NCBI RefSeq assembly: GCF_050699935.1
Contig: NZ_JBOHGB010000021.1
Location: forward strand, 3,245-67,244
Direction: 5' to 3'
DNA from: Actinophytocola sp.
Lineage (GTDB): Bacteria; Actinomycetota; Actinomycetes; Mycobacteriales; Pseudonocardiaceae
Length of the DNA stretch: 64,000 bases
Below are positions 2,391 to 62,078 of the stretch, piece after piece. The number at the start of each line of letters is the position of its first letter. The first letter of the stretch is position 1. Position numbers and translations under genes: made by a program. The notes below the pieces were generated by a model that was given only the letters and a program-made list of their open reading frames with translations, did not search any database and was not told the origin of the DNA.

Positions 2391-4078
2391 GTCTGTCAGT
2401 GGCCAGTGGGAAGTGGCTCTGTCCCACATTCCGTGATTCGGTGGTCGTTAGTCGCTGAGGAGGATGCGGAGTCGGAGCAGGTCGGGTTTGGCTCGGCCGT
2501 ACATTTGTCGTTTGATGGCCTTGATTCTGGTGACGTTGCCTTCGACGCCGCCGGAGTTGTAAGGCAGGGTGAGTCCGGCTGTGACGGCGTGCCAGTCCTT
2601 GCGTAGTCCGGTGGCGAAGGCGCGTAGCTCGCGGACGGGGCCGTTTTCGGCTTTGCAGACCCATTCTTCGAGTTTGGCGCCGCCGAGGTGGCAGAGCATT
2701 TTCGCGAAACTGGCGACGAGGTCGCGGGTGGCCGCCAGCTCCGCGCAGCGACCACAGGCGTCTTCCAGTCCGGCGCGGTCGTCGTCGGTGAGGTTGTCGG
2801 GGTTGCGGACGATCCAGCCGACGACGTCGCGCGCCTTCGGCGCTGGTGGTGGCTCTGGTTTGGTGAGCGTGGCACGCAGCTCGGCGGTGTAGCGGCGCAG
2901 GGTGCGGATACTGCCGTGGAACCCGCGGTCGCGGATTTCCTCGAGCAGCTGGTTGGTGCTGGTGCAGCCCTCCTCCCAGCGTTGGCGTAGGTAGGGCTTG
3001 TAGGGCTTCAGGGTGCTGGTGCGCCCGGTCGGGTTCGCGCCGATGAGCTCGTCCGGGCTGGCGGCCTGGGCGTAGCGGCGGACGGTTTTGCGGTCCAGCC
3101 CGAGGGTGTGGCTGATCGTGGTCAGTGACAGGCCTCGGGCGAGTAGCGCGTGAATTTCGGCATGCCGGGCGCGGGTCTGCTCGGCGCGTAGTCCCTCGAC
3201 TGCGTCACCGATCGAGGGTGTTGCGATGGACTGAGCCGGGTCGGGTTCGGCGCGCAGGCAGCGGCGATGCCGTCCGACCACGCGTTTCACCGCGCCGGTG
3301 AGGTTGTGCAGCAGGTGCCAGCGGTCGGCGACCTGCACGGCCGCCGGAGCGCCACGGTTGGCGCCCTCGGCATAGCATCCGGCGCGGTCGCGGCAGATCA
3401 CCTCAACCCCAGGGTGGGCGTCCAGCCACGTCGCCAGCGAGTCGGCCGACCGATCAGGCAGGACGTCGACCGGCTTACCGGACTCGATGTCGATCAGCAC
3501 TGTGCCGTAGTTGTGCCCGCGCCGCAGGGCGAAGTCGTCCACCCCCAGCACGCGCGGTGTCGACATCTCGGGCTCGGGCAGGTTACGGATCAACCGCAGT
3601 AACGTCATCCGGCTCACCGCAGCGGCCAGGTGACTGGTCAGCCGTGCGCCAGCACGGCCTCCCAGAGCGAGCGCGACCGCACGCGACGCCGCGGTGAGCA
3701 CCGTGCTGCGACGTCCATAACGGACGGTCAATCCCGGGACCTGTTCCGCGAAGGTTTCTTGGCGCACTCGAAGTTGTCGCACAAGAACGACGCACCCGCA
3801 ACTGGACCAGCATTTCCCGGCCGCCGACCGCGGTGTCGGACAACCGCCGCTCATAGCTGCTATGCACCCGACCCGACGCAACCCCACAGCCAGAACACGA
3901 GGCCTCGGCAGCCTGCGTGCTCGCCTCGATCCGCACCGACCGGCCCCTCGCGCACACACCATCGATCCGCACACCAGCCAAATGCGGGAACAGGACCCCT
4001 ACCAGACCAAGATCATCGCACTTCGATCATGATCAACTATCTGGGAGGGTCAGCTCCGACTGGCCCGCACTGACAGAC
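2391..4078 (-). mobile_element. ISL3-family insertion sequence (about 1.69 kb) with long imperfect terminal inverted repeats
   Basis: Encloses an ISL3-type transposase. Ends are 2391-2429 GTCTGTCAGTGGCCAGTGGGAAGTGGCTCTGTCCCACAT and the reverse complement of 4039-4078, GTCTGTCAGTGCGGGCCAGTCGGAGCTGACCCTCCCAGAT (about 31 matches over about 40 nt with a 3 nt gap). Confidence 0.75.
2448..3981 (-). pseudogene. ISL3 family transposase, apparently disrupted by two 1-nt deletions in the N-terminal zinc-finger region
   Basis: Main ORF 2448..3974 has the ISL3 core (RVLGVDDFALRRGHNYGTVLIDIESGKPVDVLPDRSADSLATWL...VQVADRWHLLHNL). The N-terminus (CSGCGVASGRVHSSYERRLSDTAVGGREMLVQLRVRR) is in ORF 3583..3981. 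The expected FLCDNFECAKK segment sits in the third frame around 3750-3790. Confidence 0.75.
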
Positions 4079-9295: not shown

Positions 9296-9368
9296 CGCCC
9301 TTGGCAGGATTCGAACCTGCGACACCTGCCTCCGGAGGGCAGTGCTCTATCCCCTGAGCTACAAGGGC
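9296..9368 (-). tRNA. tRNA-Arg (anticodon CCG)
   Basis: The reverse complement GCCCTTGTAGCTCAGGGGATAGAGCACTGCCCTCCGGAGGCAGGTGTCGCAGGTTCGAATCCTGCCAAGGGCG folds as a cloverleaf. It has a 7 bp acceptor stem (GCCCTTG/CAAGGGC), anticodon loop CTCCGGA and T-loop TTCGAAT. Confidence 0.93.
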
Positions 9369-18016: not shown

Positions 18017-19315
18017 GTGAGTATCAAGGTCGCCATGCTGGGGTGTGGAACCGTTGGGGCGGAAGTGGTCCGGCTGCTGCACGAGCAGGCCGGCGACCTC
18101 GCCGCGCGCGTCGGCGGGTCGATCGAGCTGGCCGGGATCGCCGTGCGGCGGCCCAACCGGCACCCGGACGTGCCCGCGGACCTGCTCACCACCGACGCCG
18201 CCGGGCTCGTCGCGTCCGATGTGGACATCGTGGTCGAGGTGATCGGCGGCATCGAGCCGGCCCGCTCGCTGCTGACCGACGCGCTGCGCGCCGGCAAGTC
18301 CGTGGTGACCGCGAACAAGGCGCTGCTCGCCGAGCACGCCGCGGACCTGTTCGCGGCCGCCGGCTCCGCGGGCGCGGACCTGTACTTCGAGGCCGCGGTG
18401 GCGGGTGCGATCCCGCTGTTGCGGCCGCTGCGCGAGTCGCTCGCCGGCGACCGGATCACCCGGGTGATGGGGATCGTCAACGGCACCACCAACTACGTAC
18501 TGTCCGAAATGGACGCGTCGGGCGCGGGCTACGCGGAGACGCTCGACGAGGCCTCCCGGCTCGGCTACGCGGAGGCCGACCCGACGGCCGACGTGGAGGG
18601 CTACGACGCGGCGTCCAAGGCGGCCATCCTCGCCTCGATCGCCTTCCACACCAGGGTCACCGCGGCCGACGTGTACCGGGAGGGCATCACCGCGGTCACG
18701 CCGGCGGACATCGCCGCCGCGCGGACGCTCGGCCGGACGATCAAGCTGCTGGCCATCTGCGAGCGGGTGAACGGCGGCCCGGACAGCGCTGCCGGCGAGG
18801 CGGTCGCGGTCCGCGTGCACCCGGCGATGATCCCGCGCGGCCACCCCCTCGCGACCGTGGGCGGCGCGTTCAACGCGGTCTTCGTGGAGGCCGACGCGGC
18901 CGGCTCGCTGATGTTCTACGGCCAGGGCGCGGGCGGCTCGCCCACCGCGAGCGCGGTGCTCGGCGACCTCGTCGCGGTGGCACGCAACAAGGTCGTGGGC
19001 GGGCGCGGGCCGGGGGAGTCCTCTTACGCCGCGCTCCCGGTCCGCCCGATCGCCCAGGTGGACACCCGCTACCACATCAGCCTGGACGTGGCCGACCGCC
19101 CGGGTGTGCTGGCTTCGGTGGCCACGGTGTTCGCCGAGCACGGCGTGAGCATCGCCGCGGTCCGCCAGCAGGGCCGCAGCGCCGACGCGAGCCTGGTCAT
19201 CGTCACGCACTCCGCCCCCGACGCCGCCCTAAGGTCCACTGTCGACAAGATCGCGGGGCTGGCGGTCGTGCACGAGGTAGTCAGCGTGATGCGGGTAGAA
19301 GGCGAGGAACCATGA
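18017..19315 (+). CDS. hom: homoserine dehydrogenase
   Basis: GTG at 18017 gives [21 protein letters not shown]...[10 protein letters not shown]...[10 protein letters not shown]...[10 protein letters not shown]...[18 protein letters not shown], plus a C-terminal ACT domain. Confidence 0.92.
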
Positions 19316-20505
19316 GGTCAGATCGGACCCCCGGGCTCTCCAACCGCACCTCAGGGGAACGTGACGCAACCCAGCCACAAGTACGTGACCAAACAGCACT
19401 TTCCCTCCCCCAAGGTGACCACAACAATGAATTTCGGGGAGGCGGTACTGCTTGGCCCGGGGTGATCCACGCCTACTCCGACCGGATCCCGCTCCCGGAC
19501 GGTGCGAAGGTGGTGACCCTGCAGGAGGGCGGCACACCGCTGCTGGAGGCCCACCACGTCTCGGCGGCGACCGGCTGCCGGGTGCTCCTCAAGATCGAGG
19601 GCGCCAACCCGACCGGCTCGTTCAAGGACCGCGGCATGACCGTGGCGATCACGCACGCGCTGGCCACGGGCGCCACCGCGGTGATCTGCGCGTCCACCGG
19701 CAACACGTCCGCGGCGGCCGCCGCGTACGCCGCGCGCGCCGGGCTGACCTGCGCGGTCCTCGTGCCGAGCGGCAAGATCGCGATGGGCAAGCTCGCGCAG
19801 GCCGTCGCGCACGGCGCGCGGATCCTGCAGATCAGCGGCAACTTCGACGACTGCCTCGAGCTCGCCCGCAAGACCGCCGCCGAGTACCCGGTGGAGCTGG
19901 TCAACTCGGTCAACCCGGTGCGCCTGGTGGGGCAGCGGACCGCCGCGTGGGAGATCTGCGACACGCTCGGCCGCGCGCCCGACGTGCACTGCCTGCCGGT
20001 CGGCAACGCGGGCAACATCACCGCGTACTGGCAGGGCTACCGAGACTACGCCGAGGACGGCGTGGTCGCGGGGACGCCGAGGATGTTCGGCTTCCAGGCC
20101 GCGGGCGCGGCGCCACTGGTGCGCGGGGAGCCCGTGCGTGACCCGGACACCGTGGCCACCGCGATCCGGGTGGGCAACCCCGCCTCGTGGGCGGGCGCCA
20201 TCGCCGCGCGTGACGCGTCGGGCGGGCTGATCGACGCGATCACCGACGAGCACCTGCTGGCGGCGTACCACCTGCTCGCCACGCGCGAGGGCGTGTTCGT
20301 CGAGCCGGCGGCGGCGATCAGCGTGGCGGGCGCACTGGCGACGGCCGCGGACGGCCGGCTGCCGGCGGGCTCGCTCGTGGTCTGCACGGTGACCGGGCAC
20401 GGCCTCAAGGACCCGGACACGGCGCTCGCGGGCATGCCGCCGGTGGAGCCGGTGCCGGTGTCGCCCGGTGCGGTCGCGGCCGCGCTGGAGCTGACTCGAG
20501 CGTGA
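19312..20505 (+). CDS. thrC: threonine synthase (start uncertain: ATG 19312 overlapping the hom stop, or GTG 19462)
   Basis: Contains [26 protein letters not shown]...[17 protein letters not shown] (PLP lysine) ...[16 protein letters not shown]. The reading frame is open back through the repeat element to the ATG at 19312 (ATGA overlap with hom). Confidence 0.88.
19340..19445 (+). repeat. MITE/MIRU-like repeat, copy a (106 bp)
   Basis: CCAACCGCACCTCAGGGGAACGTGACGCAACCCAGCCACAAGTACGTGACC...ACAACAATGAATTTCGGGGAGGCGG. About 88% identical to the reverse complement of 49076-49180. Confidence 0.9.
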
Positions 20506-21428
20506 GTGGAGCCGCGTCCGCCATGAGCGGCACGGTCCGGGTCACGGTTCCCGCCTCGACGGCGAACCTCGGCTCGGGCTTCGATGCACTCGGGCTCGCG
20601 CTCGGCCTGTACGACGTGGTCGAGGTGGCGGTCACCGACGAGGGCGTCACGGGCACGGTGACCGGCGAGGGCGCGGGCCTGCGCGTCGACGAGAACCACC
20701 TCGTCGTGCGCGCGCTGCTGGCCACCGCGAAGGAGCTCGGCCTCGACCTGCCCGGCGTGGAGTTGACGTGCGTGAACGCGATCCCACACGCACGCGGGCT
20801 CGGGTCCTCGGCCGCTGCCGTCGTCGCGGGCATCGCGGCCGGATACGCGCTCGCCGAACGTGAGCTGGACAGTGCGGCGCTGCGGCTCGCCGCCGGGTTC
20901 GAAGGGCACGCCGACAACGTCGCCGCGAGCCTGCGCGGTGGCCTCGCGTTGGCGTGGACCGAGTCGACGCCGAACGAGACCGGGCACACGTATCACGCGG
21001 TGCGCTTCGAGCCGCACCCGTCGCTGCGGCCGGTCGTGCTGATCCCGGCCGAGCACTCCGCCACGTCGCTGACCCGCGGCTTGCTGCCAGCCTCGGTGCC
21101 GCACGTCGACGCCGCGTTCGCGGCCGGCCGGTGCGCGCTCGCCGTGCACGCGCTCACCACGTGGCCGGAGCTGTTGCTGACCGCGACCGAGGACCGGCTG
21201 CATCAGGACTACCGCGCGCGGGCGTGGCCGAACACGATGCGCCTGGTGCGTGCGATGCGCGAGAACGCTGTCGCCGCAACGGTTTCCGGCGCCGGACCGA
21301 CCGTGTTCGCGGCGACGCTGGACGGCCGGTTGCCGGCCGGAGTGGACACGTCGGGCTTCCTCGTGCGCGAGCTGGCGGTCGACCGTGACGGGGTACGAAC
21401 CGAGCGGGTCGGAACAAATTCCAGGTAG
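20502..21428 (+). CDS. thrB: homoserine kinase
   Basis: Contains [21 protein letters not shown]...[19 protein letters not shown] (GHMP kinase motif). The start overlaps the thrC stop. Confidence 0.9.
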
Positions 21429-21814
21429 GCGGTGTTGTACAGGTCAGCCACGCCGGGCACCCGGTTGTTGCACGCGGATGCGGGGCCGTCTACCCTCAGG
21501 GGCGTTCAGTCACCGCGCGTACCGGCGCCCGGTGTCGTTCCCGGGGAACTCTTTCCGGGTCGCATCATCATCCGTTGAGATGCCGACTCGGCCCATGGCC
21601 GAAGTCGACGCTGGCGGATACCGAAAGCCGCGGTGACCGAGGTAGCTCAGCGTTGACGAACCGTCGTCCGCGATGGCGAAACTGCCAGGTGGCCACGGTA
21701 GTGATGGCGGTCGGTCAACCCGGGGCGTAGCGCCGTGCCGAGTTCGTCGGGCGGCGGTCCGCTGGTACACGGGTCCACCAAATGGAGGCGGGGACCTGGT
21801 CAGGAAGGACATGA

Positions 21815-24183: not shown

Positions 24184-24385
24184 GTACTCGATCGGGTGAC
24201 ATCGGTGAGTGTGCGACCAAGTGCGGCGGGCAGCCGCTCACGGACGACGAGCGGTCGGAATACGGCCCGAGCGGGGCGCGTTGAAGACTTCGCCAGGTCA
24301 TCTGGCAAACTGTTGGGTCGAGTCCCGGCTCCGGTTCACCCCGAACGAACGGGGACCCGGCGGCCACTGAGAAAGGGCAAGATCT

Positions 24386-27836: not shown

Positions 27837-28658
27837 ATGCTTCGCGCGTGGCAGGACGTGATCGTCAAGTGGCGGCTGGTGCCCGACGACCTTCCGGACT
27901 GGGACGTCGCGGGTCGCGAGCAGGCGTATTCGGCCAGGTCAGCCCTGCTCGACGGCCGCCTGGACGAGGCGCTGGAGAGGTTCGATGCCGCGGCCCGGCT
28001 GCGTGATCATCCGCTCGACCAGGTGGGGATCGGTGACGTGTATCTCGCGCGCGGCAAGTGGCGCACGGCGGAGGAGCACTACCGCCGGGCGCTGCCCGCC
28101 GGCGGGGTCGCGGCGTTGCTGGCCAAGCTCGGCATCGGCCAGGTGCTGATCGGCGAGGGCCGGGCCACCGCCTCGATCGCCGACCTGGAGCACCTCGTCG
28201 CCGACCGGCCGCAGGATCCGACGTTGCGGTACTACCTCGCGAGCGCCTGGTTCTCGGTGGCCGAGCAGAGCCGCTCCCGCACCGCCGACGACACCCTGGT
28301 GATCACGAGCGAGCAGCAGCTGCTGATCTGCGAGCAGGCGGCCGAGCGGATCCTGTCCCTGGAGGTCGACGACACCGAGCTCGACCGCGGCGCGGAGCAA
28401 CTGCGGGGCGAGGTCGCGTTGGGCCGTCGGTGGACCTGGGCGCCGGAGGGGATCGCGGTCAGCCTGGCCGTGCTGGTCGTCGCGATGGGACTGATCACGG
28501 TCGTCGCCGGCGGGCTGATGGGCAGCCCGGCCCTGGTGATCGCCGGCGTCGTGCTGGGGGCCCTGTTGCTGTTCGTGATCGTGTGGCGCTTCCGCCGGCA
28601 GACCTGGCGCCGCCGCGCCGACGAGATGGCCCCACGGATCACCCGGCCCGGGGTCTAA
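27837..28658 (+). CDS. TPR-like repeat protein with C-terminal TM helices
   Basis: Contains LDEALERFDAAARL...GDVYLARGKWRTAEEHYRRAL plus hydrophobic segments IAVSLAVLVVAMGLITVVAGGL and ALVIAGVVLGALLLFVIV. Confidence 0.55.
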   Translation: MLRAWQDVIVKWRLVPDDLPDWDVAGREQAYSARSALLDGRLDEALERFDAAARLRDHPLDQVGIGDVYLARGKWRTAEEHYRRALPAGGVAALLAKLGIGQVLIGEGRATASIADLEHLVADRPQDPTLRYYLASAWFSVAEQSRSRTADDTLVITSEQQLLICEQAAERILSLEVDDTELDRGAEQLRGEVALGRRWTWAPEGIAVSLAVLVVAMGLITVVAGGLMGSPALVIAGVVLGALLLFVIVWRFRRQTWRRRADEMAPRITRPGV

Positions 28659-28668
28659 GGTTTCGCCC

Positions 28669-29319
28669 GTGAGTGTGGTGTACGACTGCGGCAAGGAACC
28701 CGACCGTGCGGACGGGCTGGCCGCCGCCGCGAGCGCGGTGCGGGCCGGTCGGCTCGTGGTCATGCCGACCGACACCGTGTACGGCATCGGGGCGGACGCG
28801 TTCTCCTCGACCGCGGTGAAGGCGTTGCTGGCGGCCAAGAACCGCGGCCCGGACATGCCGGTCGGCGTGCTCGTCGGCTCGTGGTCGACGATCGACGGCC
28901 TCGTGCTGTCCGTGCCGCAGCCGGCCCGGGCGCTGATCGAGGCGTTCTGGCCGGGCGACCTGTCGATCGTGTTGCCACACGCGCCGTCGCTGTCCTGGGA
29001 CCTCGGCCGCAGCCACGGCACCGTCATGATCCGGATGCCGCTGCACCCGGTGGCGATCGAGCTGCTCCGCGACGTCGGCCCGATGGCGGTGTCGAGCGCG
29101 AACCGCTCCGGGCACCCGCCGGCCGTGAACGCCGGCGAGGCACGTGATCAGCTCGGCGAGTCGGTCGCGGTCTACCTCGACGGCGGCCCGTCGGGGGAGC
29201 CGGTGCCCTCCACCATCGTCGACCTGTCCGGCGACGAGCCGGTCGTGGTGCGCGAGGGCGCGGTCAGCGTCGCCGCCGTGTCCGAGGTGATCGGCACCGA
29301 GGTCCGGACCGCCGGGTAA
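28669..29319 (+). CDS. tsaC: L-threonylcarbamoyladenylate synthase (YrdC/Sua5 family)
   Basis: Contains VVMPTDTVYGIGADAF...AKNRGPDMPVGVLV...FWPGDLSIVL...IRMPLHPVAIELL...MAVSSANRSGHPPA...PSTIVDL. Confidence 0.88.
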   Translation: MSVVYDCGKEPDRADGLAAAASAVRAGRLVVMPTDTVYGIGADAFSSTAVKALLAAKNRGPDMPVGVLVGSWSTIDGLVLSVPQPARALIEAFWPGDLSIVLPHAPSLSWDLGRSHGTVMIRMPLHPVAIELLRDVGPMAVSSANRSGHPPAVNAGEARDQLGESVAVYLDGGPSGEPVPSTIVDLSGDEPVVVREGAVSVAAVSEVIGTEVRTAG

Positions 29320-48173: not shown

Positions 48174-49069
48174 TCAGCGGACGGTCACCGGGATCCGCTG
48201 CGCCAGGTTGTTCGCCATCCCCTGCACGTTCCACGGCTGCTCCACCGGCTGCACGCCCTCGGCGTCCGCCGCCCGGCAGCACAGGGTGTACTCGCCGGGT
48301 ACCGCGTCCCACGTGCACGACCACGGCCGCCACGCGTGGCGCGAGCGGCTCGGCCCGAGCGAGGCCGACGTCCACGTCAGCCCGTCGTCGACGCTCACGT
48401 CCACTCCGGACACCAGGGCACGGCCCGACCACGCGCGGCCGAACAGGGTCACCGGTCCCGCGTCCACGACCCGCCGCCGGGTCATGAAGTCCGGGAACCC
48501 CGGCGGGACGGCCAGCGCCCGCGGCTGGATCCGCGACACCGGCACGCCGGGATCCTCGGCCGAGGTGCGCAACCGGTAGGCGACCTCGTTCTGGAACCCG
48601 GTGAACGGCGTGAACAGCACCGTGATCTCCCGCAGCCACTTCACGTGCGCCATCCCGTACCAGCCCGGCACGATCAGCCGCACGGGCGCGCCGTGCTGCG
48701 GCGGCAGCGGCGCCCCGTTCATCTCGTACGCCAGCAGCACGTCCTCCGCCGTGGCGTCCGCGAGCGGCAGCGCCCGGCCGTAGTCCTGCTCGACCCCGCG
48801 CTCGGTCCCGTGGTCGAGCCCGGTGAACGCGACGTCGACCGCGCCGTCGAGCACGCCCGCCTCGGCCAGCAGCGCCGGCAGCGAGCAGCCGGTCCACGCC
48901 GCGGTCCCGACCGCCTCGTCCAGCCACGGCTGGCTGACCGGGCGGGGTGCAGCCGCGCCCGGCCGTTGCCCGCGCACTCCAGGGTCACCGTCCGGGTCAT
49001 GGCGGGCCGGGCCCGCAGCGCGGCGAGGTCGAGCGTCAGCGGGTCGCGGACGTGGCCGCCGACCCGCAG
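48174..49069 (-). pseudogene. sulfite-oxidase-family molybdopterin oxidoreductase, 5'-truncated with one frameshift
   Basis: The main frame carries AVGTAAWTG..L..LL..AGV...LLAYEMNGAPLPPQHGAPVRLIVPGWYGMAHVKWL and the Mo-co dimerisation domain. The segment LRVGGHVRDPLTLDLAALRARPAMTRTVTLECAGNGRARLHP is in another frame (shift at G-run 48944-48947). No upstream catalytic-domain start is present. Confidence 0.65.
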
Positions 49070-49075
49070 CCGGGT

Positions 49076-49180
49076 CCGCCTCCCCGGAATTCATTGTGTT
49101 GGTTGCGTTGGGGACGGAAGGGTCTGTTTGGTCACGTACTTGTGGCTGGGTTGCGTCACGTTCCCCTTAGGTGCGGTTGG
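49076..49180 (-). repeat. MITE/MIRU-like repeat, copy b (105 bp)
   Basis: The reverse complement is CCAACCGCACCTAAGGGGAACGTGACGCAACCCAGCCACAAGTACGTGACCAAACAG...ACACAATGAATTCCGGGGAGGCGG. Confidence 0.9.
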
Positions 49181-49285
49181 GAAGGCCTCGGCTTGGTTTG
49201 ATCTTGGGTGTCACAAGGGGTTTCATGACGGCCACCTCCCGGCACCAGGGTGCACCCGCGGCGGGGCGTCGGGCTAGGCCGGTGA

Positions 49286-56060: not shown

Positions 56061-56828
56061 ATGTACTCCCACCTACTGGTCGGGACCGACGGGGACACGG
56101 TCCGGATCACGATGAACCGGCCGGCCCGGCGCAACTCGCTGTCGGCGGAGCACCTCGCCGAGCTGCTGGACGCCTTCCGGGCGGCCGGGGACTCGAAGGC
56201 CTCGGGCGTGGTGCTGGCCGGCGCGGGGCCGGTGTTCTCGGCCGGCCACGACTTCGGCGACGTGGCGGCCCGGGACCTGATGGGCGTGCGCGAGCTGCTG
56301 GCGCTGTGCACCGAGCTGATGCGCACGATCCAGTCGATCCCGCAGGTGGTGGTCGCGCGTGTGCACGGTCTGGCGACGGCCGCCGGCTGCCAGCTGGTGG
56401 CGTCCTGCGACCTGGCCGTCGCGGCGTCGTCCGCGGGGTTCGCGCTGCCGGGCGGGAAGGGCGGCTGGTTCTGCCACACGCCGGCCGTGCCGGTGGCGCG
56501 GTCGGTCGGCCGAAAGCGCCTGATGGAGCTGGTGCTCACCGGCGACGTGGTCGACGCCGCCACCGCCCTCGACTGGGGCCTGGTGAACCGCGTGGTCCCC
56601 GACGACGAGCTCGACGCCGCGGTCGACGAGCTGCTCGCGCGGGCCACCCGTGGCAGCCGGGCGAGCAAGGCGCTCGGCAAGCAGACCGTGTACGCCCAGC
56701 TGGACCGCCCGGAGGCGGACGCGTACGCCATCGCCCTGGAGGTCATGGCGGCGGCGTCGCAGCTCCCGGGCGCGCGCGAGGGCATGGCCGCCTTCCTGGA
56801 GAAGCGCAAGCCGGACTGGCTCGACTAG
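56061..56828 (+). CDS. enoyl-CoA hydratase/isomerase family protein
   Basis: Crotonase fold: ITMNRPARRNSL...VVLAGAGPVFSAGHD...VARVHGLATAAGCQLV..CD...EGMAAFLEKRKP. Confidence 0.85.
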   Translation: MYSHLLVGTDGDTVRITMNRPARRNSLSAEHLAELLDAFRAAGDSKASGVVLAGAGPVFSAGHDFGDVAARDLMGVRELLALCTELMRTIQSIPQVVVARVHGLATAAGCQLVASCDLAVAASSAGFALPGGKGGWFCHTPAVPVARSVGRKRLMELVLTGDVVDAATALDWGLVNRVVPDDELDAAVDELLARATRGSRASKALGKQTVYAQLDRPEADAYAIALEVMAAASQLPGAREGMAAFLEKRKPDWLD

Positions 56829-56829
56829 C

Positions 56830-56933
56830 CCGCCTCCCCGGAATTCAAAGTGTGGGTTGCGTTCCACCGGATGGTGGCGGTCAGGCGGTTGACTGTGGCT
56901 GGGTGCCGTCACGGTCCCCTGAGGTTGCGTTGG
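56830..56933 (-). repeat. MITE/MIRU-like repeat, copy c (104 bp)
   Basis: The reverse complement is CCAACGCAACCTCAGGGGACCGTGACGGCACCCAGCCACAG...GGAACGCAACCCACACTTTGAATTCCGGGGAGGCGG. It starts 2 nt after the TAG stop of the hydratase gene. Confidence 0.9.
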
Positions 56934-57018
56934 TCGGGACCAGACCTCGCACCGTGATCACGGGACACCAGCCTGGCGGTCCCCGGATGTGCCGGGGCGG
57001 TCGGCTAGCCTGCCCCGC

Positions 57019-58852: not shown

Positions 58853-60634
58853 ATGGCCCGCGAGTTCGGATGTGTCGGAGTGGTCGGGCTGGGCACGATG
58901 GGTGCCGGCATCGCCGAGGTCGTCGCCCGCACGGGCATCCGGGTGATCGGCGTCGAGCTCGACCGGGACTGCGTCGCCCGCGCCCGCGAGCACCTCGAGC
59001 ACTCCACCGAGCGGGCGCGCTCGGGCGGCAAGCTGGACGAGGCCGCCCGCGCGGCGCTGCTCGACCGGATCACCTACACCACCTCGCTCGCCGACCTGGC
59101 CGACGCCGACCTCGTCGTCGAGGCGATCCCGGAGAGCCTCGAGCTGAAGGCCCGGGTGTTCACCGAGCTCGAGGAGGTCTGCCGGCCGGACGTGATCCTG
59201 TGCTCGAACACGTCCTCGCTGTCGGTCACCGAGATCGGCGTGCACACCGGGCGGCCGGGCAAGGTCGTCGGGCTGCACTTCTTCAACCCGGCGCCGGTGC
59301 TGCGGCTCGTGGAGATCGTCCGCACGGTCGTCACCGAGCCGGACGTGATCGCCGACGTCGAGGCGTTCGCCCGCAAGCTCGGCAAGGAGCCGGTGGTGAT
59401 CGGGGACCGGGCCGGGTTCATCGCGAACGCGCTGCTGTTCGGCTACCTCAACCACGCCGCGTCGATGTACGAGTCCCACTACGCCACGCGCGAGGACCTC
59501 GACGCGGCGATGCGGCTGGGCTGCGGTTACCCGATGGGGCCGCTCGCGCTGCTCGACCTGATCGGGCTGGACACCGCGTACGAGATCCTCGAGACGATGT
59601 ACCGCCAGTCGCGCAACCGCCTGCACGCGCCGGCCCCGATCCTGCGGCAGATGATCACGGCCGGGCTGCTCGGCCGCAAGTCCGGGCGTGGCTTCTACTC
59701 CTACGACGGCCTGGACTCGCCGACGGTCGTGCCGGACGCGCTCACTCCCGTCCCGGCGCCGGCGGCCGCCGTGTCCACACGGGACGTCACGCGGGTCGGC
59801 GTGGTCGGCACCGGGACGATGGCGACCGGCATCGCGGAGGTGTTCGCGCGCAATGGGTTCGACGTCGTGCTGCGGGCGCGGTCGGGGGAGCGGGCGGACG
59901 CGGCGCTCGCGGCCGTGCGCAAGTCCATGGACCGCCAGGTCTCGAAGGGCCGGCTGTCCGAAGAGGATGGTGTGGCGGTGCTCGGCCGGGTCCGCGGCGT
60001 CGTCGAGTTCGACGAGCTGGCCGACTGCGACCTGGTGATCGAGGCGGTGGCCGAGGAGCTGGGGGTCAAGCGGGCGGTGTTCGGCGCCCTCGACGAGGTG
60101 GTCAAGCCGGGCGCGGTCCTCGCGACCACCACGTCGTCGCTGCCGGTGATCGAGTGCGCGGTGGCCACCTCGCGGCCGGCGGACGTCGTGGGGCTGCACT
60201 TCTTCAACCCGGCGCCGGTGATGAAGCTGGTGGAGGTCGTGTCGACGATCTCGTCGGCCGACGACGTGGTGGCGACCGCGCGTGCGGTGTGCCAGCGGGT
60301 CGGCAAGCATCCGGTGCACTGCGCGGACCGGGCCGGGTTCATCGTGAACGCCCTGCTGTTCCCGTACCTGAACGACGCGGTCAAGATGCTGGAGGCGCAC
60401 TACGCGGACGCCGACGACATCGACACGGCGATGAAGGTCGGCTGCGGGCTGCCGATGGGCCCGTTCGAGCTGCTGGACGTGGTCGGGCTGGACGTGTCAC
60501 TCGCGATCGAGCGCGCGCTGTACTACGAGTTCCGGGACGCCGGGTTCGCGCCCGCGCCGCTGCTGGAGCACCTGGTCACCGCGGGCCGGCTGGGCCGCAA
60601 GGCGGGCAAGGGCTTCCGGGACTACGGCGTGTGA
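58853..60634 (+). CDS. tandem 3-hydroxyacyl-CoA dehydrogenase (two complete HAD modules)
   Basis: Two NAD-binding starts (VGVVGLGTMGAGIAEV; VGVVGTGTMATGIAEV). Each is followed by S.TSSL...GLHFFNPAP...DRAGFI.NALL and a C-terminal dimerisation domain. Confidence 0.88.
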   Translation: MAREFGCVGVVGLGTMGAGIAEVVARTGIRVIGVELDRDCVARAREHLEHSTERARSGGKLDEAARAALLDRITYTTSLADLADADLVVEAIPESLELKARVFTELEEVCRPDVILCSNTSSLSVTEIGVHTGRPGKVVGLHFFNPAPVLRLVEIVRTVVTEPDVIADVEAFARKLGKEPVVIGDRAGFIANALLFGYLNHAASMYESHYATREDLDAAMRLGCGYPMGPLALLDLIGLDTAYEILETMYRQSRNRLHAPAPILRQMITAGLLGRKSGRGFYSYDGLDSPTVVPDALTPVPAPAAAVSTRDVTRVGVVGTGTMATGIAEVFARNGFDVVLRARSGERADAALAAVRKSMDRQVSKGRLSEEDGVAVLGRVRGVVEFDELADCDLVIEAVAEELGVKRAVFGALDEVVKPGAVLATTTSSLPVIECAVATSRPADVVGLHFFNPAPVMKLVEVVSTISSADDVVATARAVCQRVGKHPVHCADRAGFIVNALLFPYLNDAVKMLEAHYADADDIDTAMKVGCGLPMGPFELLDVVGLDVSLAIERALYYEFRDAGFAPAPLLEHLVTAGRLGRKAGKGFRDYGV

Positions 60635-60643
60635 GGTCTTGGG

Positions 60644-60751
60644 CCGACCATGGTGACCTCAGGGGTACCGTGACGGCACCCAGCCACAATCAGCCGGACA
60701 TCCGCAGCGTTCGCTGGGACGCAACCGACGCATTGAATTCCGGGGAGGCGG
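60644..60751 (+). repeat. MITE/MIRU-like repeat, copy d (108 bp)
   Basis: CCGACCATGGTGACCTCAGGGGTACCGTGACGGCACCCAGCCACAATCAGCC...GGGACGCAACCGACGCATTGAATTCCGGGGAGGCGG. It begins 10 nt after the dehydrogenase stop. Confidence 0.9.
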
Positions 60752-60863
60752 ACTGGTTCGGGTGACCGTCCGGGCAGATTGCGGGGTCGGACGACGCGCT
60801 CGTCGGGCGCTGGACGTCGAACGTCACGGCGCACTCGTGGCAGCGGAACTCGTAGGTCGGCAC
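60690..60863 (-). CDS. FmdB-family zinc-ribbon protein whose C-terminus is replaced by repeat copy d (possibly a pseudogene)
   Basis: GTG (complement of 60861-60863) gives VPTYEFRCHECAVTFDVQRPTSASSDPAICPDGHPNQ, then SASPEFNASVASQRTLRMSG encoded by the repeat. The usual ...VFKGSGFY tail is absent. Confidence 0.5.
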   Translation of the reverse strand: MPTYEFRCHECAVTFDVQRPTSASSDPAICPDGHPNQSASPEFNASVASQRTLRMSG

Positions 60864-61982: not shown

Positions 61983-61996
61983 GAGACAAGGGAATT

Positions 61997-62078
61997 CCGT
62001 GACCTCAGGGGACCGTGACGCAACCCAGCCGCACCATCCGCCGGAACGTAACCAACACTTTCAATTCCGGGGAGGCGG
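61997..62078 (+). repeat. MITE/MIRU-like repeat, copy e (about 82 bp, shortened core)
   Basis: CCGTGACCTCAGGGGACCGTGACGCAACCCAGCCGCACCATCCGCCGGAACGTAACCAACACTTTCAATTCCGGGGAGGCGG. The left boundary is uncertain. Confidence 0.85.

Follow-up and report, generated by a model that had tools for sequence, protein, structure and literature searches.

A probable MIRU-like mobile repeat at gene starts and stops in Pseudonocardiaceae

What is the short sequence that recurs at five gene boundaries along a 64-kb stretch of DNA from Actinophytocola sp. (the whole stretch is termed the window below, and its five repeat copies a to e; Table 1), and by what means could it have come to lie there? An earlier sequence-only reading took it to be a non-coding, non-autonomous interspersed element resembling the mycobacterial interspersed repetitive unit (MIRU), a view that is now supported by further copies in other genomes, by empty orthologous sites, and by the behavior of the reading frames at its edges. 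We consider it probable that the element is a lineage-specific, non-autonomous mobile repeat of the Pseudonocardiaceae that behaves like a mycobacterial MIRU. Comparison of orthologous loci indicates that the element is mobile, because copies a, c, d, and e are absent from the corresponding sites of relatives whose flanking proteins are 91-92% identical.

Copies, anatomy, and distribution of the repeat

The five copies proposed at the outset are confirmed by two kinds of search. Block 1 (GGGGAnCGTGACGnnACCCAGCC) has five matches in the window at up to one mismatch, as against 0.03 expected, and block 2 (AATTCCGGGGAGGCGG), at the same tolerance, falls at the same five places; a profile hidden Markov model (HMM) made from 85 copies and run over the window likewise returned exactly five copies (E = 6e-20 to 5e-31), with the next match at E > 5. 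This corresponds to a density of about one copy per 13 kb. Copies a and b are 89% identical, close to the 88% first estimated, and the remaining window pairs are 64-78% identical. The GAATTC site attributed to the 3' block is present in copies b, c, and d, which hold three of the six such sites in the window. A second assembly (GCA_974430075.1), 99.97% identical over 10.1 kb, carries the same copies.

Three points of the initial description had to be revised. The repeated unit is longer than the 82-108 bp first given, because a 5' arm of ~10-55 nt upstream of ACCTCA and five further 3' bases past GGCGG (consensus R-M-C-W-G, commonest ACTAG), both common to copies in other genomes, belong to it; units of the family span ~80-155 bp overall, and the full unit is about 135-165 bp. 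The two conserved blocks, which had been taken for the ends of the element, are subterminal. The imperfect terminal inverted repeat was retained only in a weak form, with 11 matches in 16 columns and two gaps, and in copies of the a/b type only. Read from 5' to 3', the element comprises the 5' arm, which is variable and opens with a stop codon, an invariant block (ACCTCAGGGGAnCGTGACGnnACCCAGCC), a core that keeps to a fixed length while its sequence is variable and differs strongly among subfamilies, and a 3' end made of an invariant Shine-Dalgarno-like block, CCGG(G/A)GAGGCGG, followed by RMCWG. The core is C/A-rich and G-poor (A 30%, C 40%, G 18%, and T 11% on the forward strand; the window has 35% C and 36% G), and its YC dinucleotides are 2.5 times more frequent on the forward than on the reverse strand. 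Measured from the first base of block 1 to the last of GGCGG, 111 of 115 copies span 87-92 nt. The 5' extent of the copies is broadly distributed, and a few of them (L014, L088, and copy e) have truncated 3' ends.

The 5' arm and the flanks distinguish two types of copy. The stop-codon type, common in Actinophytocola, starts with TAG or TAA and has the arm (C)TA(A/G)GGCCTGTCyCGTrGATC...GTGTGAAGTCC.... [quoted passage not shown] Units also occur in series. Head-to-tail dimers and trimers share one CTAG, and tandem arrays are found in L096, L015, L011, and L055, with truncated tandem units beginning near the same GTGACG position at different loci. In the arrays of L096 (5590-6010), L019, L039, and L069 the later units start inside block 1 (...ACTAG followed directly by CGACGGCACCCAGCC...), and in one metagenome-assembled genome (MAG) an identical truncated array junction is seen at two different loci. 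The last 12-15 nt of the element are sometimes tandemly duplicated on their own, in which case two or three consecutive repeats of GGAGAGGCGG plus spacer immediately precede the start or stop codon downstream.

Table 1. Coordinates of the repeat copies and associated features (window positions unless a locus is named)
Feature	Position	Strand	Remark
Native ATGA overlap, hom stop/thrC start	19312-19315	+	just 5' of copy a
Copy a	19316-19450	+	within first thrC codons; block 1 19348-19376, block 2 19430-19445
Copy b	49071-49226	-	start-codon type
Copy c	56825-56975	-	stop-codon type, full-length
Copy d	60626-60756	+	5' arm truncated
Copy e	61998-62078	+	almost no 5' arm; internal core deletion
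Empty site in window	28656-28671		TAAggtttcgcccGTG
Tandem 3'-end duplications	L060 ~3260-3310, L076 ~3640-3680		also L050, L028, L042, L073, L104
Element ends that would bound a cognate transposase gene			TAGGGCCTGTCCCGTGGATC ... CCGGGGAGGCGGAC(TAG)

The repeat is far from confined to the window. A scan of a species-representative genome collection with block 1 recovered at least 113 stretches in related genera; the matches listed are all from Pseudonocardiaceae and include Actinophytocola (both isolates and MAGs), six Saccharopolyspora species, Amycolatopsis arida, Actinocrispum, and one Actinosynnema strain. Together, the 113 loci and the window hold 124 exact cores, which lie at gene junctions, or 136 cores at a tolerance of up to three substitutions. 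Among the loci examined, 27 full-length copies belong to a single MAG, with a median pairwise identity of 91% and a maximum of 98.7%, and some subfamilies are evidently young or recently amplified. BLAST searches of plasmid and phage collections gave no similarity to the element, and the block sequences were found in no paper by a literature search; with no match in Rfam or in the literature searched, the family appears to be previously undescribed. A single pattern match in IMG/VR (L123 6676-6698, UViG_3300037873_000028) is a 23-nt exact block 1 within a 782-aa open reading frame (ORF), whose peptide (...GDRDDTQP...) resembles the frame-A peptide of the element. It was rejected as a viral copy, since block 1 stands alone there and the other parts of the element are absent.

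Orthologous sites and neighboring reading frames

Empty counterparts of filled sites, as expected of a mobile element, were found in relatives at hom-thrC, at sites c, d, and e, and at trpB-trpA. The hom-thrC site is empty in three metagenome contigs with a 92% identical ThrC (ATGAGGTCGGTCGTCCGGCCCGCCTGGCCC in L114; ATGACTGCGGCACGAGTCCGGCCTTCGTGGCCC in L115 and L116) and filled in the window (ATGAGGTCAG[ATCGG...GGCGGTACTG]CTTGGCCC); the comparison therefore places copy a inside the first ~8 thrC codons, with ~12 nt of the target missing in the window relative to the empty site. The 5' junction of this copy falls in the microhomology GAGGTC(A/G)G, and its 3' end reads GGCGG+TACTG. A closer relative, L117, retains at hom-thrC only a 30-nt internal fragment of the element, in frame. 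At this site (L117 1501-1600; MAG MFD05684.bin.1.374, contig_54092) the fragment includes neither conserved block and falls in the annotated N-terminus of ThrC (MRRDQAALSLPRGDHT...).

Sites c, d, and e are all empty in four syntenic relatives (L118-L121; FadB 91-92% identical), which have no copies in 43 kb as against three in the matching 10 kb of the window. Site c is a simple insertion right after the native echA stop, GAC TAG in L118 and L120; the 3' end of copy c (GGCGGGCTAG) adjoins and shares this TAG (56826-56828), and its 5' end faces the nucS start. At site d in the relatives, fadB and a zinc-ribbon gene converge with their stops 1 nt apart or overlapping; in the window, the fadB stop TGA (60632-60634) is supplied by the GTGTGA of the element, and the convergent FmdB-type zinc-ribbon ORF stops inside the element (60690-60692). 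At site e, the convergent aminotransferase gene is without its last three codons and now ends in the TCAATT of the element, with its stop (62061-62063) within block 2 and the junction at a GGCG microhomology. Just 5' of this copy, at 61985-61999 (+), GGGAATTCCG repeats the AATTCCG of block 2 and may be a remnant of a preceding tandem unit lost by deletion.

Elsewhere in the family, the trpB-trpA junction carries a copy in Amycolatopsis arida (agtccGTGA[gacacc...GGCGGCACT]GTGAGCGAG) and none in the Actinophytocola MAG L090. The reverse arrangement, with the window as the empty partner (Table 1), is seen at a site whose ortholog in another Actinophytocola MAG (the L096 array mentioned above) holds one full unit and three tandem 5'-truncated units of ~86 nt each. 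For the very young copy in L103, the adjacent beta-galactosidase had no database homolog above 70% identity with which an empty site could be compared. A candidate sixth window copy at the thrB stop (21417-21432, AATTCCAGGTAGGCGG) was rejected, its sequence being conserved in a relative: the end of thrB (21383-21432, +; ...CCGTGACGG...GGAACAAATTCCAGGTAGGCGG) resembles both blocks of the element, and it is native rather than a decayed copy because the same sequence and C-terminus (...GTNSR, then the stop) are kept in L117.

The ends of the element coincide with the signals that begin and end genes, as judged by crude gene calling from third-position GC. In 11 of 17 young copies of the stop-codon type, the same-strand gene upstream takes its stop from the TAA or TAG at the 5' end of the element; in 27 copies, a convergent gene stops at the CTA within the terminal ACTAG; and ~10 others have the convergent stop 18 nt inside the 3' block. 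Young copies of the stop-codon type differ in the base that precedes the 5' TA (C, T, or G), and their 3' end is always ...GGCGGAC-TAG. These junctions fit an insertion into the TA of TAG/CTAG, in which the first base (A/G) and last base (C) of the element would rebuild a stop on either strand.

The ORF beginning at the start codon of the 5' junction was followed in 22 copies of the start-codon type, most of them with a gene start just downstream: in nine, it crosses the element completely and is closed by the TGA of an ATGA or GTGA that overlaps the downstream start (-4 overlap), in seven, copy a included, it runs in frame into the gene, and in the remaining six, it stops earlier. In no start-codon-type copy are the frames so related that ribosomes would enter the downstream gene out of frame. 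Of 26 copies, 19 have no stop within the element in the frame of the start codon, and 7 have none in the only other possible frame; the GGAGG of the element lies 6-14 nt before many start codons. In copy a, the ATG of the native overlap reads through the element into ThrC with a net gain of 39 residues. The 5' end of copy b is an ATGA (49226-49223) preceded by the Shine-Dalgarno sequence GGGAGG (49240-49235), and here a mutation of ACCTCA to ACCTAA has closed the ORF of the element. The suggestion that copies lie at gene boundaries and become fused to reading frames is thus borne out by the ends at stop and start codons and by the in-frame ThrC fusion. In-frame fusion as a general rule was rejected, because most start-codon-type copies are not in the frame of the gene and ends at an overlapping TGA are seen.

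We propose that the element is moved in trans by an enzyme that would insert it into (C)TAG at gene ends and, on the start side, into (C)ATGA at gene starts or at stop/start overlaps. At gene ends, flanking genes would keep their termination signals because the ends of the element would rebuild the stop codon on either strand. At gene starts, ribosomes initiating at the original Shine-Dalgarno sequence and start codon would translate an ORF through the unstructured element, terminate at the TGA overlapping the duplicated start codon (-4 ATGA), and then re-initiate with the aid of the Shine-Dalgarno sequence that the element supplies 6-14 nt upstream; in the other outcome, the ORF of the element would be fused in frame to the gene. 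Such coupling or fusion would keep insertions tolerable in operons and at gene boundaries. To judge from its composition, an unstructured C/A-rich tract ending in GGAGG would suit the passage and re-initiation of ribosomes and, when untranslated, the loading of Rho. The two invariant blocks, with their fixed spacing, are most likely the recognition target of the mobilizing machinery.

Several observations weigh against this proposal. The frame counts are not independent because copies of one subfamily share their length, and GC-rich DNA has few stops by chance anyway. Copy d has cost the zinc-ribbon protein ~35 C-terminal residues, so that insertions are not always harmless, and the gene 3' of copy b looks broken. 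Neither a transposase or recombinase beside the element nor solo ends were found in the 0.9 Mb around the 113 loci. Stop-codon-type copies are flanked by direct repeats of TA or (C)TAG and start-codon-type copies by ones of 4-8 nt around (C)ATGA, and these repeats are inseparable from intrinsic ends of the element or from the general similarity of Shine-Dalgarno-spacer-ATG regions; those of the start-codon type may be a target duplication, a shared recombination core, or intrinsic ends brought next to a similar region. Lastly, the junctions at sites a, d, and e fall in microhomologies and are accompanied by a loss of target DNA, and the 5' extent of copies is broad, a pattern that is not that of classical cut-and-paste movement and for which later deletions may account. 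For copies d and e we prefer decay by microhomology-mediated deletion after an ordinary insertion.

The gene 3' of copy b codes for a sulfite-oxidase-like protein (molybdopterin oxidoreductase) and is split into two frames, 48174-49094 (-) and 48719-49000 (-), with no in-frame start codon after the copy. It is probably a pseudogene or the product of an assembly frameshift.

Competing accounts of the repeat and its movement

The strong conservation of the blocks might in principle be of protein, of RNA structure, or of the nucleotide sequence itself. All codon positions within the blocks are invariant, different copies read them in two frames, and the peptides of the element had no match in Pfam; the conservation is therefore at the nucleotide level, in line with the sequence-only reading, and a protein-coding repeat was rejected. 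Rfam gave no match at gathering thresholds, and none for copies c, d, and e even at E <= 10, so that the repeat indeed belongs to no RNA family described there. RNAalifold, applied to both strands of 85 non-redundant copies, found no covarying pair (covariation term 0), with eight invariant pairs on either strand at ~-5 kcal/mol, and folding against dinucleotide-preserving shuffles gave a mean z of +0.15 on both strands, that is, no extra stability. A local core hairpin does occur in some subfamilies (GGTCC...GGACC, with forward A.C mismatches that would be G.U pairs in reverse), but the Saccharopolyspora copies are without it. A structured small RNA, riboswitch, or ribozyme family in multiple copies, for which the two invariant blocks and these hairpins might speak, was rejected on the Rfam, RNAalifold, and shuffle results, and we hold it to be extremely unlikely. 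The shuffle result also led to the rejection of a RAYT-mobilized REP/BIME, as there is neither a stable imperfect palindrome of 20-40 nt nor a consensus helix. A PATE derived from IS200/IS605 was rejected on the lack of excess hairpin stability, the direct repeats of 4-8 nt in the start-codon type, and the mixed orientation of copies in 64 kb; what it has in common with PATEs is that it lacks terminal inverted repeats and that its junctions are specific to a tetranucleotide.

An unstructured RNA could nevertheless act in cis and have been propagated or kept because of that effect, either as a tract that loads Rho after the upstream stop or as a Shine-Dalgarno leader for the downstream gene. 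The C-rich, G-poor core with its excess of YC dinucleotides, the folding no better than that of shuffled sequence, the start at stop codons and the GGAGG end before many start codons, and the spacing of the blocks held to 87-92 nt are all compatible with such a functional module. On the other hand, copies lie in both orientations relative to their neighbors (copy c is antisense to both), orthologous genes in close relatives are without the element, many copies are truncated or decayed, and the flanking genes are functionally unrelated; nor is there a promoter or terminator consensus, with neither a sigma-70-type promoter nor an intrinsic terminator found in copies c, d, and e. We accordingly regard a cis-acting function as distinctly unlikely, and keep Rho loading as a minor alternative because of the occurrence of copies in every orientation and their absence from close relatives.

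If the repeat is mobile, a more familiar way to move it would be that of a MITE (miniature inverted-repeat transposable element), namely an internally deleted DDE insertion sequence (e.g., one that is IS630/Tc1-like and targets the TA within CTAG) carried in trans by the transposase of its parent. The stop codons, Shine-Dalgarno sequences, and ORFs would then be by-products of selection on the insertions that survived. Young stop-codon-type copies do have the form N-TA, then (A/G)GGCC...GGCGGAC, then TA-G, in which the variable base before TA is what a 2-bp TA duplication in a TAG or CTAG target would produce; at echA, copy c has simply inserted at the native GAC TAG; head-to-tail dimers share a single CTAG; and a by-eye alignment of the 5' end with the reverse-complemented 3' end in the stop-codon type gives 12 matches over 21 positions. 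Yet the terminal inverted repeat is weak and the blocks that are invariant family-wide are subterminal, the start-codon-type junctions show (C)ATGA repeats of 4-8 nt in place of TA, and sites a, d, and e show loss of target rather than a duplication of fixed length. Moreover, the 0.9 Mb of carrier DNA around the 113 loci contains no insertion sequence or transposase gene with the same ends and no recurrent transposase-like ORF family, the recurrent genes near copies being only ABC transporters, LacI-type regulators, and similar. A classical MITE is therefore rather unlikely in our estimation, and of the initial label "MITE/MIRU-like" the second half stands, while the first is not established in view of the weak inverted repeats, the ambiguous duplication, and the lack of an autonomous partner in 0.9 Mb.

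Another reading of the truncations, junctions, and 3' duplications is that they hint at a mechanism that is site-specific or begins at the 3' end. A homing element, whether reverse-transcribed (SINE-like) or sequence-guided (IS110/IS900-like), would integrate from its constant 3' end, or by crossover of a circular 3'-5' junction (Shine-Dalgarno-spacer-CATGA or CTAG) with a matching target. The constancy of the 3' end beside variable and often truncated 5' ends, the microhomology junctions with small target deletions, the tandem 5'-truncated units, the duplication of the last 12-15 nt (L060, L076, and L050), the lack of a terminal inverted repeat, and targets that are the 4-nt palindromes CTAG and CATG are in keeping with this, and IS900 of the IS110 family is likewise without terminal inverted repeats, as well as without direct repeats (PMC8141618). 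IS900 and its relatives differ in being autonomous elements of ~1.4 kb with a DEDD transposase, and no such gene or shared ends were found here. IS900 inserts between the ribosome-binding site and the ATG, and a target choice of high sequence specificity beside these signals is a further likeness to the repeat. Against homing, no reverse transcriptase or DEDD transposase was identified, later deletions explain the truncations equally well, and a few copies (those noted above) are 3'-truncated too. A SINE-like or IS110/IS900-like origin is thus very improbable, and the relation to the IS110 family is a lead toward a mobilizer rather than a finding. Framed more broadly, as an actively amplifying element that homes to CATG at starts and CTAG at stops by a sequence-guided or reverse-transcription-based route, with no inverted-repeat transposase, the idea has a small chance of being correct; if so, the young subfamilies would expose machinery that also moves MIRU-type repeats.

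Known repeats, annotation, and other features of the window

The MIRU-like mobile repeat that we favor is best compared with its namesake. A 2025 review that cites Supply et al. 1997 (PMC12548453) describes MIRUs as mobile and as inserting at start codons with an internal ORF coupled at -4 nt, so that an insertion has minimal impact; an earlier review (PMC3184786) adds that sites may be empty or filled, that the direct repeats are tetranucleotides and the inverted repeats imperfect, and that the ORFs overlap adjacent genes. Tandem units are described as well (PMC12548453; PMC3184786). The repeat described here corresponds, in described behavior, on several counts: both are short non-coding interspersed repeats of Actinomycetes that insert at operon junctions and start codons and occur as head-to-tail tandems, both are present at some orthologous sites and absent from others, both have a -4 ATGA-coupled internal ORF whose ends overlap the neighboring genes, and both have imperfect inverted repeats, though the flanking repeats of tetranucleotide scale are in our case inseparable from the ends of the element. 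It differs from MIRUs in its host family, in its unit of about 135-165 bp as against 40-100 bp, and in its much higher density in some genomes, with five copies in 64 kb here as against 40-50 per mycobacterial genome. Unlike MIRUs, it also has a second class of copies at TAG stops and between convergent genes and carries a strong Shine-Dalgarno-like 3' block.

Other families of small repeats share some of these features. Correia/CREE, ERIC, and RUP elements are of similar size, non-coding, multi-copy, intergenic, and polymorphic between relatives, and their copies can change the ends of neighboring genes; for Correia and ERIC there is the additional likeness of a TA in the target that is possibly duplicated, which here applies to the stop-codon type. 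In contrast to all of these, the Pseudonocardiaceae repeat has no convincing terminal inverted repeats and no long hairpin (z ~0), its start-codon-type junctions are without TA, and no cognate insertion sequence was found in the 0.9 Mb. The Rickettsia palindromic elements (RPEs) resemble it in their length of ~100-150 bp and in in-frame insertions that add residues, as copy a does to ThrC; however, RPEs are palindromic and occur anywhere in ORFs, whereas the present repeat is non-palindromic and confined to first and last codons and intergenic junctions.

We know of no explanation, since 1997, for the movement of MIRU-type repeats. In Mycobacterium tuberculosis, MIRUs are few and old. The Pseudonocardiaceae repeat is abundant, polymorphic between relatives at 91-92% flanking-protein identity, represented by subfamilies up to 98.7% identical, and present in cultured strains (Actinophytocola xanthii, A. 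algeriensis, and Saccharopolyspora indica). Because of this abundance, recent activity, and occurrence in cultured carriers, both its mobilizing enzyme and the proposed design that preserves coupling between genes would be experimentally testable. The repeat also bears on annotation, as copies create false N- or C-terminal extensions and shift predicted starts; examples in the window are the 39 residues added to ThrC, the ...GV end of FadB, the PPPRN end of an aminotransferase, and the truncated zinc-ribbon protein. In addition, the repeats break MAG assemblies, and they might serve as strain markers.

Two further features of the window are unrelated to the repeat: an L31-Actinobacteria ribosomal-protein leader recognized by Rfam (24325-24365, +; 50.6 bits) and a tRNA gene (9296-9368, -). 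The FadB-like gene (593 aa) contains two halves, 59088-59572 and 60009-60493, that are 74% identical at the DNA level, which indicates an internal duplication of its 3-hydroxyacyl-CoA dehydrogenase module.

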